Position numbers and translations under genes: made by a program
Notes under the pieces: generated by a model
Told to the model about the DNA's origin: nothing
The model's database searches: none
Seen by the model: the letters and a program-made list of their open reading frames with translations, nothing else
In this document: in pieces, positions 38,120 through 47,156 of the stretch
How the letters are laid out: the number at the start of each line of letters is the position of its first letter
Position numbering within the stretch: position 1 is the stretch's first letter
Assembly (NCBI RefSeq): GCF_003334405.1
Contig: NZ_QOWM01000017.1
DNA: 64,000 bases
Source of the DNA: Escherichia coli
GTDB taxonomy: Bacteria; Pseudomonadota; Gammaproteobacteria; Enterobacterales; Enterobacteriaceae
Direction: 5' to 3' (one strand)

Positions 38120-38886
38120 TGAGCAATTTATTAGGCCCCCGTGACGCCAACGGCATTCCGGTCCCCATGACGGTGGATGAATCCATCGCCAGCATGAAGG
38201 CGTCGTTACTGAAAAAAATCAAACGTTCTGCCTATGTTTACCGCGTGGACTGCGGCGGCTGCAACGGTTGCGAAATCGAAATTTTCGCCACGCTTTCGCC
38301 GCTGTTTGATGCAGAACGCTTCGGCATTAAAGTCGTTCCTTCACCGCGTCATGCGGATATTTTACTGTTTACCGGCGCGGTCACCCGTGCAATGCGATCC
38401 CCTGCGCTGCGTGCGTGGCAGTCCGCGCCGGACCCGAAAATTTGTATCTCCTACGGTGCCTGCGGTAACAGTGGCGGGATCTTCCACGATCTCTACTGCG
38501 TGTGGGGCGGTACGGATAAAATTGTCCCTGTGGATGTTTATATCCCTGGCTGCCCGCCAACGCCTGCCGCCACGCTGTACGGCTTTGCAATGGCGCTCGG
38601 CCTGCTGGAGCAGAAAATTCACGCCCGTGGGCCGGGTGAACTGGATGAACAACCGGCGGAGATCCTGCATGGTGATATGGTGCAGCCGCTGCGCGTGAAA
38701 GTGGATCGCGAAGCACGTCGCCTGGCGGGTTATCGTTACGGTCGTCAGATTGCCGATGATTACCTTACACAGTTAGGGCAGGGCGAAGAACAGGTTGCAC
38801 GCTGGCTGGAAGCGGAAAACGATCCGCGTCTGAACGAGATTGTCAGCCATCTGAATCATGTTGTTGAAGAGGCGCGTATCCGATGA
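38119..38886 (+). CDS. hycG: Hydrogenase 3 small subunit HycG
   Basis: Track ORF 255 aa; NuoB-like CGGC...GCPP motifs. Confidence 0.95.
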
Positions 38887-39293
38887 GTGAAAAGGTGGTG
38901 TTCAGTCAACTGAGCCGTAAATTTATTGATGAGAACGATGCCACGCCCGCCGAGGCGCAGCAGGTGGTCTATTACAGCCTGGCGATTGGTCACCACCTTG
39001 GGGTTATCGATTGCCTGGAAGCGGCGCTCACCTGCCCGTGGGATGAATATCTGGCATGGATTGCCACTCTGGAGGCAGGCAGTGAAGCCCGCCGCAAAAT
39101 GGAAGGCGTGCCGAAATATGGTGAGATCGTCATCGACATTAACCATGTGCCGATGCTGGCCAACGCATTCGATAAAGCCCGGGCAGCGCAAACTTCGCAG
39201 CAGCAGGAATGGAGTACAATGCTGTTAAGTATGCTGCATGATATTCATCAGGAAAACGCCATCTATTTGATGGTGAGGAGACTGCGTGACTGA
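38883..39293 (+). CDS. hycH: Formate hydrogenlyase maturation protein HycH
   Basis: Track ORF 136 aa; conserved operon position. Confidence 0.9.
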
Positions 39294-39756
39294 CGTTTTA
39301 CTCTGTGTTGGCAATAGCATGATGGGCGATGATGGCGCAGGTCCGCTGCTGGCGGAAAAGTGCGCCGCCGCGCCGAAAGGTAACTGGGTGGTGATTGACG
39401 GCGGTAGCGCACCGGAAAACGACATCGTCGCTATCCGTGAACTGCGCCCGACACGACTGCTGATTGTCGACGCCACGGATATGGGGCTAAACCCCGGCGA
39501 GATCCGCATCATCGACCCGGATGATATCGCCGAGATGTTTATGATGACTACCCATAACATGCCGTTGAATTACCTTATCGACCAGTTGAAAGAAGATATT
39601 GGCGAAGTGATTTTCCTCGGCATTCAGCCGGATATCGTCGGCTTTTACTACCCGATGACCCAGCCGATTAAAGATGCGGTAGAAACCGTTTATCAACGAC
39701 TGGAAGGCTGGGAAGGAAATGGCGGCTTCGCGCAGTTAGCGGTGGAAGAAGAGTAG
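39286..39756 (+). CDS. hycI: Hydrogenase 3 maturation endopeptidase HycI
   Basis: Track ORF 156 aa; last hyc gene. Confidence 0.95.
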   Translation: MTDVLLCVGNSMMGDDGAGPLLAEKCAAAPKGNWVVIDGGSAPENDIVAIRELRPTRLLIVDATDMGLNPGEIRIIDPDDIAEMFMMTTHNMPLNYLIDQLKEDIGEVIFLGIQPDIVGFYYPMTQPIKDAVETVYQRLEGWEGNGGFAQLAVEEE

Positions 39757-39825
39757 TTTTTCATTAAGGAATCAGGACAGGGATGTTCTTGATGGGGTGA
39801 ACCAGCTCTGATGCCAAATGCTAAA

Positions 39826-39908
39826 TTGCCCGATGCGCTGCGCTTATCGGGCCTTCATGGTTCGTGCGACATGTAGGCCGGATAAGGCGTTCACGCCGCA
39901 TCCGGCAC
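39826..39908. repeat. REP/BIME element (two inverted REP palindromes) between convergent hycI and ascB
   Basis: GCCCGATGCGCTGCGCTTATCGGGCC and GTAGGCCGGATAAGGCGTTCACGCCGCATCCGGCA, matching the E. coli REP consensus. Confidence 0.8.
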
Positions 39909-39914
39909 TGTTAC

Positions 39915-42805
<2,891 letters not shown>

Positions 42806-42888
42806 CGGATTTTATCCTGTTATCAGTAGGGTAGATGTAGTTGTTATCAGTCGACGTGACGGAAAAATGCCGATGCTGAAACGGAATT

Positions 42889-42978
42889 AAGAAACCGGTT
42901 TCACAAAATCATGAATAGTTGTCACTAAATAAGCAAGAGAGTGAATTGTTCATTTTTTATATTTGTGAAACCGGTCAC
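42889..42978. promoter_or_regulatory. Two GalR/LacI-type palindromic operators in the ascF/ascG divergent region (candidate AscG sites)
   Basis: AAGAAACCGGTTTCAC at 42889-42904 (perfect palindrome GAAACCGGTTTC) and TGTGAAACCGGTCAC at 42964-42978. Confidence 0.55.
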
Positions 42979-43061
42979 CTGAATATTTTTCCCGCCGATT
43001 GTGCAAGGACAATCGGCAAACGGTGCAGTACACTGCGTTGATTGCGTGTAAAGGGATGAAA

Positions 43062-44075
43062 ATGATGACGACGATGCTGGAAGTGGCGAAGCGCGCCGGG
43101 GTTTCAAAAGCGACCGTTTCCCGCGTGCTTTCAGGTAATGGCTACGTCAGCCAGGAGACTAAAGATCGCGTGTTTCAGGCGGTAGAAGAGAGCGGTTACC
43201 GTCCAAACTTGCTGGCGCGCAATCTGTCGGCGAAGAGTACTCAGACGCTGGGGCTGGTAGTGACCAACACGCTTTACCACGGCATTTATTTTAGTGAATT
43301 ACTCTTTCATGCCGCGCGAATGGCGGAAGAGAAAGGGCGGCAGTTGCTATTGGCAGATGGTAAACACAGCGCAGAAGAAGAGCGCCAGGCGATTCAGTAT
43401 CTGCTGGATCTGCGCTGCGACGCGATCATGATTTACCCGCGTTTTTTAAGCGTGGATGAGATCGATGACATCATTGACGCGCACAGTCAGCCGATAATGG
43501 TGCTTAATCGCCGCCTGCGCAAAAACAGCAGCCATAGCGTCTGGTGCGATCATAAACAGACCAGTTTTAACGCCGTGGCAGAGTTGATAAACGCCGGGCA
43601 TCAGGAGATTGCTTTCCTTACCGGCTCGATGGATTCCCCCACCAGCATTGAACGTCTTGCCGGGTATAAAGACGCGCTGGCGCAGCATGGTATTGCGCTC
43701 AATGAAAAACTTATCGCTAACGGTAAATGGACGCCTGCCAGCGGGGCCGAAGGGGTAGAAATGTTGCTCGAACGTGGGGCTAAATTTAGCGCGTTAGTTG
43801 CCAGTAACGACGATATGGCGATAGGTGCGATGAAAGCGTTACACGAGCGCGGCGTAGCGGTGCCAGAGCAGGTGTCAGTTATCGGATTCGATGATATCGC
43901 TATTGCCCCCTACACCGTTCCGGCGCTCTCCAGCGTAAAAATTCCGGTGACTGAGATGATTCAGGAAATTATTGGACGGCTGATTTTTATGCTCGATGGC
44001 GGGGATTTCTCACCGCCGAAAACCTTCAGCGGAAAACTGATCCGCCGCGACTCACTCATTGCTCCTTCGCGATAA
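43062..44075 (+). CDS. ascG: LacI/GalR-family repressor of the asc operon
   Basis: Track ORF 42999..44075; start moved to ATG 43062/43065 (MMTTMLEVAKRAGVSKATVSRVL HTH), ~337 aa; full-length. Confidence 0.9.
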   Translation: MMTTMLEVAKRAGVSKATVSRVLSGNGYVSQETKDRVFQAVEESGYRPNLLARNLSAKSTQTLGLVVTNTLYHGIYFSELLFHAARMAEEKGRQLLLADGKHSAEEERQAIQYLLDLRCDAIMIYPRFLSVDEIDDIIDAHSQPIMVLNRRLRKNSSHSVWCDHKQTSFNAVAELINAGHQEIAFLTGSMDSPTSIERLAGYKDALAQHGIALNEKLIANGKWTPASGAEGVEMLLERGAKFSALVASNDDMAIGAMKALHERGVAVPEQVSVIGFDDIAIAPYTVPALSSVKIPVTEMIQEIIGRLIFMLDGGDFSPPKTFSGKLIRRDSLIAPSR

Positions 44076-44076
44076 A

Positions 44077-44118
44077 CATTGTCATCACATGTCATCGTCA
44101 CTAGTGTCGATGACATCG
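44077..44118. promoter_or_regulatory. FhlA-UAS-like motif upstream of hydN-hypF
   Basis: CATTGTCATCACATGTCATCGTCACTAGTGTCGATGACATCG contains the same TGTCGATGA and TGACAT elements seen at the two hyp/hyc sites. Confidence 0.4.
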
Positions 44119-44223
44119 TTTTTCCTGCATTACAGAAATTAATTTCCTTAAATAACAGTAAATTAAAAACTGGCATGATTTGTGAATGTATCGGCGCATT
44201 AACTGTCATTGCTGGAGAATTTG

Positions 44224-44751
44224 ATGAACCGTTTCATCATTGCTGACGCGAGTAAATGTATTGGTTGCCGTACCTGTGAAGTAGCGTGCGTGGTTTCTCA
44301 TCAGGAAAATCAGGACTGTGCATCGCTGACCCCGGAAACTTTTTTACCGCGTATCCATGTCATTAAAGGTGTGAACATTTCCACGGCGACAGTTTGCCGT
44401 CAGTGTGAAGATGCACCGTGCGCTAACGTCTGCCCGAATGGTGCTATCAGCCGTGATAAAGGGTTTGTTCATGTGATGCAGGAACGTTGCATTGGTTGCA
44501 AAACCTGCGTTGTGGCTTGCCCGTATGGTGCGATGGAAGTGGTGGTACGTCCGGTGATCCGCAACAGCGGCGCGGGTCTGAATGTACGGGCTGACAAAGC
44601 CGAAGCCAATAAATGCGACCTGTGCAACCATCGTGAAGACGGCCCGGCGTGTATGGCGGCTTGCCCGACTCATGCGCTGATTTGTGTCGATCGTAATAAA
44701 CTTGAACAACTGAGCGCAGAAAAACGCCGCCGTACGGCGCTGATGTTCTAA
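44224..44751 (+). CDS. hydN: Electron transport Fe-S protein HydN (4Fe-4S ferredoxin-type)
   Basis: Track ORF 44209..44751; start moved to [15 protein letters not shown] (175 aa); paralogous to HycB. Confidence 0.9.
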
Positions 44752-44903
44752 AAATCTTACAGAACTGTTCTGGCATCAAAGGAATTCCCGGAAATATTCG
44801 TAGAATACGGAGCGGGCGGTATCGCCGACCTGTGACTGCCGGATGCGACGCTGTCGTGTCCGGCAGGGCGGGTTACGCAATTCATGATGGCGGGAATAAC
44901 TCA

Positions 44904-47156
44904 ATGGCAAAAAACACATCTTGCGGTGTCCAACTGCGTATTCGTGGCAAAGTGCAGGGCGTCGGTTTTCGTCCGTTTGTCTGGCAGCTGGCACAGCAAT
45001 TAAATCTTCACGGCGATGTCTGTAATGACGGCGATGGCGTAGAAGTCCGGCTGCGGGAAGACCCGGAAACGTTTCTTGTTCAATTGTATCAGCACTGCCC
45101 GCCGCTGGCGCGTATTGATAGCGTCGAGCGTGAGCCGTTTATCTGGTCACAACTGCCCACCGAGTTCACTATACGCCAGAGCACAGGCGGCACCATGAAT
45201 ACGCAAATTGTTCCCGATGCCGCTACTTGCCCTGCTTGCCTTGCCGAAATGAATACCCCAGGCGAACGGCGTTATCGTTATCCGTTTATCAACTGTACCC
45301 ACTGCGGCCCGCGTTTCACCATTATTCGCGCCATGCCTTACGACCGCCCGTTTACCGTGATGGCGGCGTTTCCGCTATGTCCGGCCTGTGACAAAGAGTA
45401 CCGTGACCCGCTCGATCGTCGCTTCCACGCCCAGCCGGTGGCCTGCCCGGAGTGTGGCCCGCATCTTGAATGGGTAAGTCATGGTGAACATGCGGAACAA
45501 GAGGCGGCATTACAGGCAGCTATCGCACAGTTAAAAATGGGCAAAATTGTCGCCATCAAAGGGATTGGCGGATTTCATCTTGCCTGCGATGCACGTAACA
45601 GTAACGCGGTGGCGACACTTCGGGCGCGCAAACATCGCCCGGCGAAACCGCTGGCGGTCATGTTGCCAGTGGCTGACGGTTTACCAGACGCTGCGCGCCA
45701 GTTGCTTACCACGCCCGCCGCGCCGATTGTGCTGGTGGATAAAAAATACGTTCCTGAGCTTTGTGATGATATCGCCCCTGACCTTAACGAAGTCGGGGTA
45801 ATGTTGCCTGCGAACCCGCTCCAGCATTTGCTGTTACAGGAACTGCAATGCCCGCTGGTGATGACCTCCGGCAACCTGAGCGGTAAACCACCAGCTATCA
45901 GCAACGAACAGGCGCTGGCGGATTTGCAGGGCATTGCCGACGGATTCTTGATACATAACCGCGACATCGTGCAGCGGATGGATGATTCGGTGGTGCGCGA
46001 AAGCGGCGAAATGCTGCGCCGTTCGCGGGGGTATGTGCCGGATGCGCTGGCTTTGCCTCCGGGCTTTAAAAATGTTCCGCCTGTGCTGTGTCTCGGCGCG
46101 GATCTGAAAAATACCTTCTGCCTGGTGCGCGGTGAACAAGCGGTGTTGAGTCAGCATCTGGGCGATTTAAGTGACGATGGCATCCAGATGCAGTGGCGCG
46201 AAGCGTTACGCCTGATGCAAAACATCTACGATTTTACCCCGCAATACGTTGTGCATGACGCGCATCCGGGCTATGTCTCCAGCCAGTGGGCGCGTGAAAT
46301 GAATCTGCCGACGCAAACGGTACTGCATCATCATGCCCATGCAGCGGCGTGTCTGGCAGAGCATCAGTGGCCGCTGGATGGCGGTGATGTCATTGCTTTG
46401 ACGCTCGACGGTATCGGTATGGGGGAGAACGGCGCTTTGTGGGGCGGCGAGTGCCTGCGGGTGAACTATCGCGAATGTGAGCACCTGGGCGGCTTGCCTG
46501 CAGTGGCGCTTCCGGGTGGCGATTTGGCAGCGAAGCAGCCGTGGCGAAACCTGCTGGCGCAGTGCCTGCGCTTTGTGCCGGAGTGGCAGAATTACTCTGA
46601 AACAGCAAGTGTGCAACAGCAAAACTGGAGCGTGCTGGCGCGGGCCATTGAGCGTGGAATTAACGCGCCGCTGGCGTCATCGTGTGGGCGTTTTTTCGAT
46701 GCAGTGGCGGCGGCACTGGGCTGTGCGCCAGCCACGTTAAGTTATGAAGGTGAAGCGGCTTGTGCTCTGGAGGCGCTCGCAGCCTCATGCCACGGAGTGA
46801 CGCATCCGGTGACAATGCCGCGGGTGGACAATCAACTGGATCTCGCCACTTTCTGGCAGCAGTGGCTGAACTGGCAGGCACCGGTTAATCAACGCGCGTG
46901 GGCGTTTCATGATGCGCTGGCGCAGGGTTTTGCCGCGTTGATGCGTGAGCAGGCCACGATGCGTGGTATCACTACGCTGGTATTTAGCGGCGGGGTTATT
47001 CATAACCGTTTGCTGCGTGCACGTCTGGCGCATTATCTCGCTGATTTCACATTGCTCTTTCCACAGAGTTTACCGGCGGGTGATGGCGGTTTGTCTCTGG
47101 GGCAGGGGGTTATTGCTGCGGCGCGTTGGTTAGCGGGTGAAGTCCAGAACGGATAA
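44904..47156 (+). CDS. hypF: [NiFe]-hydrogenase maturation carbamoyltransferase HypF
   Basis: Track ORF 44832..47156; start moved to [15 protein letters not shown] (750 aa); acylphosphatase domain, two CxxC zinc fingers, YrdC and Kae1-like domains. Confidence 0.95.

Follow-up and report, generated by a model that had tools for sequence, protein, structure and literature searches.

The closest described system is the ascG-ascFB region of Escherichia coli K-12 (Hall & Xu 1992; Ishida, Kori & Ishihama 2009), the region that controls the divergent genes of the cryptic asc system, for which two AscG sites have been reported at ascFB. Two other kinds of regulation offer points of comparison. At gal (OE/OI) and lac (O1/O2/O3), repressors close DNA loops, and the resemblance to asc lies in the paired LacI/GalR-type operators within about 100 bp of the promoter. 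In class I CRP promoters with a repressor that overlaps the CRP site, such as deoP2 (CytR/CRP) and lac (CRP at -61.5, O1 at +11), a weak promoter has a CRP box upstream of it at a constant distance, as at asc. The likeness of the deoP2 and lac type extends to a LacI-family operator over the transcription start, which at asc is a predicted one, and to a repressor that at asc, too, would interfere with CRP.

The locus described here is the known K-12 control region itself, already characterised, and no difference from it was found. The window, i.e., the whole stretch of 64,000 nucleotides that was analysed, has an asc control region that is base for base that of E. coli K-12 MG1655. The identity covers about 7.5 kb, with 7501/7501 bases the same over positions 38829-46329, and an MG1655 coordinate is obtained as 2882329 minus the window position. 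The AscG operator of P_ascF is likewise the same. The neighbours of the locus are hycG/H/I on one side and hydN-hypF on the other, and the 311-bp control region is present at a coverage of at least 80% in 4698 of 5426 complete E. coli genomes. The genes and the probable terminator are as follows.

39915-41339, minus strand: ascB, 6-phospho-beta-glucosidase of 474 aa, intact (NCBIfam NF007356, 1088 bits, full length; RefSeq annotation of identical DNA)
41348-42805, minus strand: ascF, PTS cellobiose/arbutin/salicin EIIBC of 485 aa, intact (NCBIfam NF007311 equivalog, 1025 bits, residues 1-485 of 485)
43065-44075, plus strand: ascG, LacI/GalR-family repressor of 336 aa, intact (100% K-12 identity; Pfam and NCBIfam matches)
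44089-44123, plus strand: probable intrinsic terminator of ascG, ATGTCATCG-N10-CGATGACAT followed by CGTTTTT (perfect 9-bp stem and T-run)

A sequence-only reading of the window had described a divergent ascFB/ascG control region with all three genes full-length, genetically intact and presumably repressed. The identity of the DNA to MG1655 bears out the first part of this description. The second also stands: the open reading frames are uninterrupted, the AscG, AscF and AscB proteins are 100% identical to those of K-12 MG1655, and no stops or frameshifts were found, including in ascF and ascB on re-inspection. Intact but silent asc genes are the canonical cryptic state of K-12, in which the operon is presumably repressed. 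The value of the locus as a discovery is small, as this is a textbook cryptic operon whose operator and CRP architecture have already been published.

AscG belongs to the LacI/GalR family by its architecture, which consists of an N-terminal LacI HTH (Pfam PF00356, residues 3-48) and a periplasmic-binding-protein-like core (PF13377, Peripla_BP_3, residues 171-330; PF00532, residues 60-308). The NCBIfam models nearest to it are those of GalR and GalS. The probable ascG terminator begins 14 nt after the stop codon and likely separates ascG from hydN.

For comparison, 80 asc loci were fetched that encode AscG relatives of 66-99% identity. The genera represented are Escherichia, Citrobacter, Enterobacter, Klebsiella, Raoultella, Kluyvera, Leclercia, Phytobacter, Aeromonas, Sodalis and others. 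The divergent arrangement of ascG and ascFB is kept in all 80.

AscG operator and CRP box at the ascF promoter

The features on the ascF side of the intergenic spacer are listed below; evidence is in brackets.

42876-42881, plus strand: additional TGAAAC half-site within the ascF leader, at 14 nt from the operator's left half (GAAAC placed likewise in 47 of 80 loci; putative in function)
42890-42903, unstranded: AscG operator AGAAACCGGTTTCA, which reads TGAAACCGGTTTCT on the ascF strand (identity to the published site, conservation in the 80 loci, uniqueness in the window)
42908-42913, minus strand: predicted ascF -10, CATGAT (in register with the operator in 80 loci, consensus atgatT.TGTG; 17 bp from the -35; score 8/12)
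42931-42936, minus strand: predicted ascF -35, TTGCTT (tctTg conserved in register in 80 loci)
42964-42979, unstranded: CRP box TGTGAAACCGGTCACC, with an AscG-like 14-mer inside it at 42966-42979 (consensus match, ETEC ChIP-seq site, conservation)

The first palindrome (site 1), AAGAAACCGGTTTCAC, lies exactly at 42889-42904, where the sequence-only reading had placed it, and the 12 bp at its core, GAAACCGGTTTC, form a perfect palindrome. Compared with the consensus TGAAACCGGTTTCA (AscG box TGAAACC-GGTTTCA), the 14-mer at 42890-42903 agrees at 13 of 14 positions, and it is the sole AscG-box match with at most one mismatch in the 64-kb window. The palindrome is kept in every one of the 80 related loci, most commonly in the form GGAAACCGGTTCCA. 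The published AscG binding sequence of P_ascF is TGAAACCGGTTTCT (PMC8667592, Table S3), identical to the reverse complement of 42890-42903. AscG bound at +1 is described in the same source as a strong repressor (PMC8667592), and site 1 overlaps the predicted ascF transcription start. The claim that this palindrome is a GalR/LacI-type operator is thus supported by its identity to the known P_ascF site and by its conservation, and site 1 is a genuine LacI/GalR-type (AscG) operator of P_ascF.

A promoter scan of 42700-43200 at a threshold of 9 of 12 positions detected no promoter, and the ascF promoter, which scores 8/12, is missed at this setting. Since the consensus scan gave none at its threshold, the ascF and ascG promoters presented here were inferred from conservation. 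The predicted hexamers would put the ascF start near 42901. The operator would then span approximately -2 to +12, and the CRP box would be centred near -70.5, a class I position. An A-rich tract is present between the ascF -35 and the CRP box, at 42944-42963. The ascG/ascF spacer (window 42806-43064) is also found in a table of heat-shock sigma constitutive promoters, from genomic SELEX with four minor sigma factors (PMC5493296); no obvious sigma-32 consensus was found in the spacer sequence.

The second palindrome (site 2), TGTGAAACCGGTCAC, is found exactly at 42964-42978. The sequence-only reading had both its sequence and its coordinates right, but its assignment as a GalR/LacI-type operator needs correction: the site is mainly a CRP box that matches the AscG box at 11 of 14 positions. 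At that level of similarity to the AscG box (42966-42979), 7 matches are found in the window versus 3.2 expected, i.e., chance level. Compared with the CRP consensus TGTGA-N6-TCACA, the sequence at 42964-42979 shows one mismatch. In ETEC H10407, a strain other than K-12, the reverse complement, GGTGACCGGTTTCACA, is the CRP ChIP-seq site given with high confidence for ascG/ascF (PMC4287617, Table 1). In the alignment of site 2, G2, T3, G4, A5, T12, C13 and C15 are retained in 76-80 of the 80 loci and positions 6-9 vary freely. The conservation across genera is confined to the CRP positions (GTGA..TCAC).

The distance between the CRP box and the operator is nearly constant. Measured start to start it is 72-74 bp in the 80 loci (73 or 74 bp in 78 of them), which is 74-75 bp centre to centre. 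An AscG-like 14-mer with at most four mismatches is found inside site 2 in 12 of the 80 loci, namely in Escherichia, with the spacer AACCGG, and in Kluyvera-type lineages, mostly with AACCGA. A perfect 14-nt inverted repeat is common to sites 1 and 2 (ACCGGTTTCACAAA / TTTGTGAAACCGGT), and a passage in PMC3505978, which cites Ishida et al. 2009, states that ascFB has two AscG sites. Because of the ETEC ChIP-seq site and the conservation of the CRP positions alone in the 80 loci, site 2 is regarded primarily as a CRP activator site, with the AscG half-site within it as a lineage-specific overlay. In the comparison of the 80 loci an ancestral design, consisting of one AscG operator over the start and a CRP box at a constant distance of 74-75 bp, stands apart from an Escherichia-specific AscG half-site overlay.

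Several minor sequences accompany the ascF leader. In 47 of the 80 loci GAAAC stands at a constant distance of 11-13 nt ahead of site 1, compared with a background of 20% of 30-nt windows, and it forms part of the extra half-site at 42876-42881. The spacer between prpR and prpB in MG1655 (348300-348900, fetched as L091) is reported as another AscG target. Positions 160-250 of that sequence hold five copies of the GAAAC half-site, of which four recur in the same orientation at intervals of about 11-13 nt (TGAAACGCGGTGAAACATTGCCTGAAACGTTAACTGAAACGC), and this TGAAAC-like run resembles the half-site of the ascF leader. No full AscG box was detected in the prp spacer at up to three mismatches.

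Nearer to the gene, the 5′-UTR of ascF displays a direct repeat, TGTTATCAGT, at 42818-42851, with two copies 24 nt apart. Of the two, the one beside the ascF ribosome-binding site, with the sequence TTATCAGTAGGGTA, is kept across genera. In E. coli 04A19CPO007 (NZ_CM151383.1, fetched as L089), an IS1 element occupies positions 2289-2986, where it has inserted into the ascF leader some 46 nt upstream of the gene's ATG, at the equivalent of window position ~42852. The element parts ascFB from the CRP box, the promoter and the AscG operator, and its effect could be activating or silencing.

Silencing of ascFB and the question of a repressor loop

Very probably, the cryptic asc switch of K-12 consists of AscG blocking RNA polymerase at site 1 and competing with CRP at site 2, with no loop. 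This is the best explanation of the operator and CRP-site identities, the conservation patterns and the intact genes. By this mechanism ascFB would be read from a weak sigma-70 promoter, with the predicted -35 TTGCTT, the predicted -10 CATGAT and a start near 42901, and transcription would depend on cAMP-CRP bound some 70 bp upstream, at 42964-42979. An AscG dimer seated on the near-perfect palindrome at 42890-42903 would block RNA polymerase. The CRP-box spacer of Escherichia has become AACCGG, a change that creates a perfect AscG left half-site (TGAAACC) inside the box, by which AscG could also displace the activator. Two independent occlusion events would account for the tight silence of an intact operon, and a DNA loop would be unnecessary. 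The repressor gene would probably be read from a conserved promoter of its own, with the -35 AGGACA at 43006-43011 and the -10 TACACT at 43029-43034. The placement of the CRP box at -70.5 and of the operator at +1 follows from the predicted starts. As for an AscG footprint on the CRP box, Ishida and co-workers in 2009 are said to have found that one AscG site overlaps this box, with repression exerted through interference with CRP and RNA polymerase.

The sequence-only reading had noted that the two palindromes lie about 75 bp apart, which is accurate (the centres are 76 bp apart), and had taken this spacing as consistent with repressor looping, a conclusion that the evidence does not support. 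In such a mechanism two AscG dimers, one per palindrome, would touch and loop out the intervening 76 bp, as at lac O1-O3 and gal OE-OI, and the loop would silence ascFB. Two AscG-type sequences with a common perfect inverted repeat are indeed present in one spacer, the passage in PMC3505978 speaks of two AscG sites at ascFB, and GalR and GalS, the closest paralogues of AscG, do loop (the gal repressosome). However only 6 residues follow the core of AscG, which ends at residue 330, and this leaves no tetramerisation helix of the LacI type. A chimera in which LacI's DNA-binding domain is joined to the AscG core, LLhA/Q55A, displayed an effect of operator spacing below 2-fold in an in vivo looping assay (PMC3505978), and the authors of that study remarked on the contrast between this result and the two annotated AscG sites. 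The centres of the AscG boxes, 42896.5 and 42972.5, are separated by 7.24 turns at 10.5 bp/turn and thus lie on different faces of the helix. The fit of site 2 to the AscG box is moreover limited to 11 of 14 positions, and 68 of the 80 related loci have a single AscG box while keeping the CRP box, a pattern by which the wider comparison further counts against a loop. On these grounds looping is improbable at asc. The tail of AscG, the chimera, the phasing and the single box together make independent occlusion of RNA polymerase and of CRP the simpler and better supported account.

The differences from the described systems follow the same lines. Unlike gal and lac, asc shows no tetramerisation domain in its repressor, no spacing dependence of the chimera, non-integral phasing, and a second site that is not conserved as an operator. 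With respect to deoP2, the repressor half-site at asc lies within the spacer of the CRP box, where AscG would compete with CRP, whereas CytR binds between CRP dimers; in a comparison with class I CRP promoters, the -70.5 position of CRP at asc is a predicted one.

A further question is whether the palindromes are also, or instead, targets of GalR or GalS, which would tie asc to the galactose regulon. Both sites are among the in silico GalR predictions of PMC5110547 (Tables 2 and 4), in which coordinate 2839356 (window 42973) has 12.7 bits and AAGAAACCGGTTTCAC is given at 2839425-2839440, corresponding to window 42889-42904. Nevertheless asc appears only in these two in silico tables and is absent from the 15 GalR-bound regions found by ChIP-chip in the same study (PMC5110547). 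GalR operators have a single central CG (GTGnAAnCGnTTnCAC) and the asc sites have CCGG, which sets their half-sites 2 bp further apart. A role of GalR or GalS at these palindromes is accordingly extremely unlikely.

Inverted repeat and conserved 14-mer at the predicted ascG promoter

On the ascG side, the following features precede the gene.

42994-43017, plus strand: inverted repeat GCCGATTGT-GCAAGG-ACAATCGGC, 9 bp (sequence and folding; Escherichia only)
43006-43011, plus strand: predicted ascG -35, AGGACA (17 bp before TACACT; falls across the loop and the right arm of the repeat)
43023-43036, plus strand: conserved 14-mer GTGCAGTACACTGC, with the predicted ascG -10 TACACT inside it at 43029-43034 (78 of 80 loci)

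The perfect 9-bp inverted repeat exists as claimed by the sequence-only reading, but its coordinates, given as 42992-43015, are wrong by 2 nt; the repeat is found to the right of them, at 42994-43017. It had also been assigned to the ascG leader, and this is probably not correct, given a predicted start that lies downstream, near 43041, and the absence of the repeat outside Escherichia. Because the predicted start is downstream of the stem, the inverted repeat would be outside the transcript, in promoter DNA.

If the repeat were transcribed, it could form a 5′-terminal or 5′-UTR stem loop of the ascG mRNA that modulates stability or translation. As RNA the sequence folds into a very stable stem, with a free energy of -15.4 kcal/mol and z = -4.6. 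The window as a whole has approximately 14 distinct perfect hairpins of at least 9 bp versus 1.8 in shuffled sequences, and the inverted repeat is one of many. The usual stem length in Escherichia is 8 bp. A ninth pair depends on the T at 43002, which is C in 9/9 of the other aligned Escherichia sequences, so that this pair is confined to the K-12 sequence of the window among those aligned. The other changes in the stem are one-sided, with the outer 3′ C replaced by T in O157 and the C at the third 5′ position replaced by T in SCPM-O-B-8794. Both result in G-U pairs in plus-strand RNA and are weakly compatible with a transcribed stem, provided that an upstream start exists; as two events they constitute weak evidence. 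The weak sequence TATTTT at 42984-42989 could be the -10 of such a start. No compensatory changes in the stem were seen among the aligned Escherichia sequences.

Outside Escherichia neither the structure nor the sequence is conserved: no conserved RNA structure was found at the position of the hairpin, the 40 nt before the 14-mer having a median z of -0.4 in 76 distinct sequences. The conserved -35 and -10 set the ascG start some 24 nt downstream of the stem, which speaks against its transcription. An Rfam search of 42700-43200 yielded no match save a chance, sub-threshold oskar element, and the Shine-Dalgarno sequence is not masked by the stem. A terminator scan of 42700-43200 found none; the stem is followed by AAACGG and not by a T-run. 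A regulatory stem loop at the 5′ end of ascG mRNA is thus very unlikely, and the inverted repeat is most likely a lineage-specific repeat without a conserved role.

The predicted ascG promoter, on the other hand, is seen well beyond Escherichia. The arrangement nnGACA, exactly 17 bp, TACACT is found in 78 of the 80 loci. Within these 78 the G of the -35 is invariant, the A after it occurs in 64, C or A stands next in every one, and the last A is kept in 75. This promoter would give the predicted start near 43041.

The predicted -10 lies in a strongly conserved 14-nt element that the 80-locus comparison exposes at the ascG promoter and that is missing from the sequence-only reading. The 14-mer, GTG(C/A)AGTACACTGC, is essentially invariant: with at most three mismatches it recurs in 78/80 loci, over a range that runs from Escherichia to Aeromonas. 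It precedes the ATG of ascG by 25-30 nt and is surrounded by unconserved flanks. It contains the short palindrome GCAGT-AC-ACTGC. No other copies were found in the window or in the prpR-prpB spacer.

Some possible roles of the 14-mer were considered and rejected. It is not coding, as an N-terminal extension of ascG from GTG 43023 or TTG 42999, since its distance from the ATG varies over 25-30 nt out of frame and its flanks are unconserved. An extended hairpin around it was also discarded: the E. coli stem is no better than those of shuffled sequences (z = -0.5), and by a reading of the flanks it is broken in Klebsiella and Aeromonas. A separate idea, that the CRP box serves both promoters symmetrically, came from its lying at equal distances from the two predicted starts of E. 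coli. It was rejected because, across the loci, the distance from the CRP box to the 14-mer varies from 59 to 73 bp whereas the distance to the operator is fixed.

The conservation of the 14-mer is stricter than that usually shown by a -10 hexamer alone, and for this reason an operator overlapping the ascG -10 is possible. The 14-mer may thus be an unrecognised operator over the ascG -10, and it is a candidate autoregulatory site for ascG. A wider proposal is tentative and on the whole rather doubtful, namely that GTGCAGTACACTGC is not just promoter core but an ascG operator, recognised either by AscG through a second binding mode or by some other factor, and that the AscG half-site of the CRP box is a recent Escherichia/Kluyvera innovation that could supplement simple occlusion with anti-activation. 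If true, anti-activation through this half-site would help account for asc being cryptic in E. coli.

In the Aeromonas loci (L069-L080) the operator, the CRP box and the 14-mer are all kept. Their AscF and AscB are 81-87% identical to those of E. coli, which suggests that the whole asc cassette moved horizontally between Enterobacteriaceae and Aeromonas.
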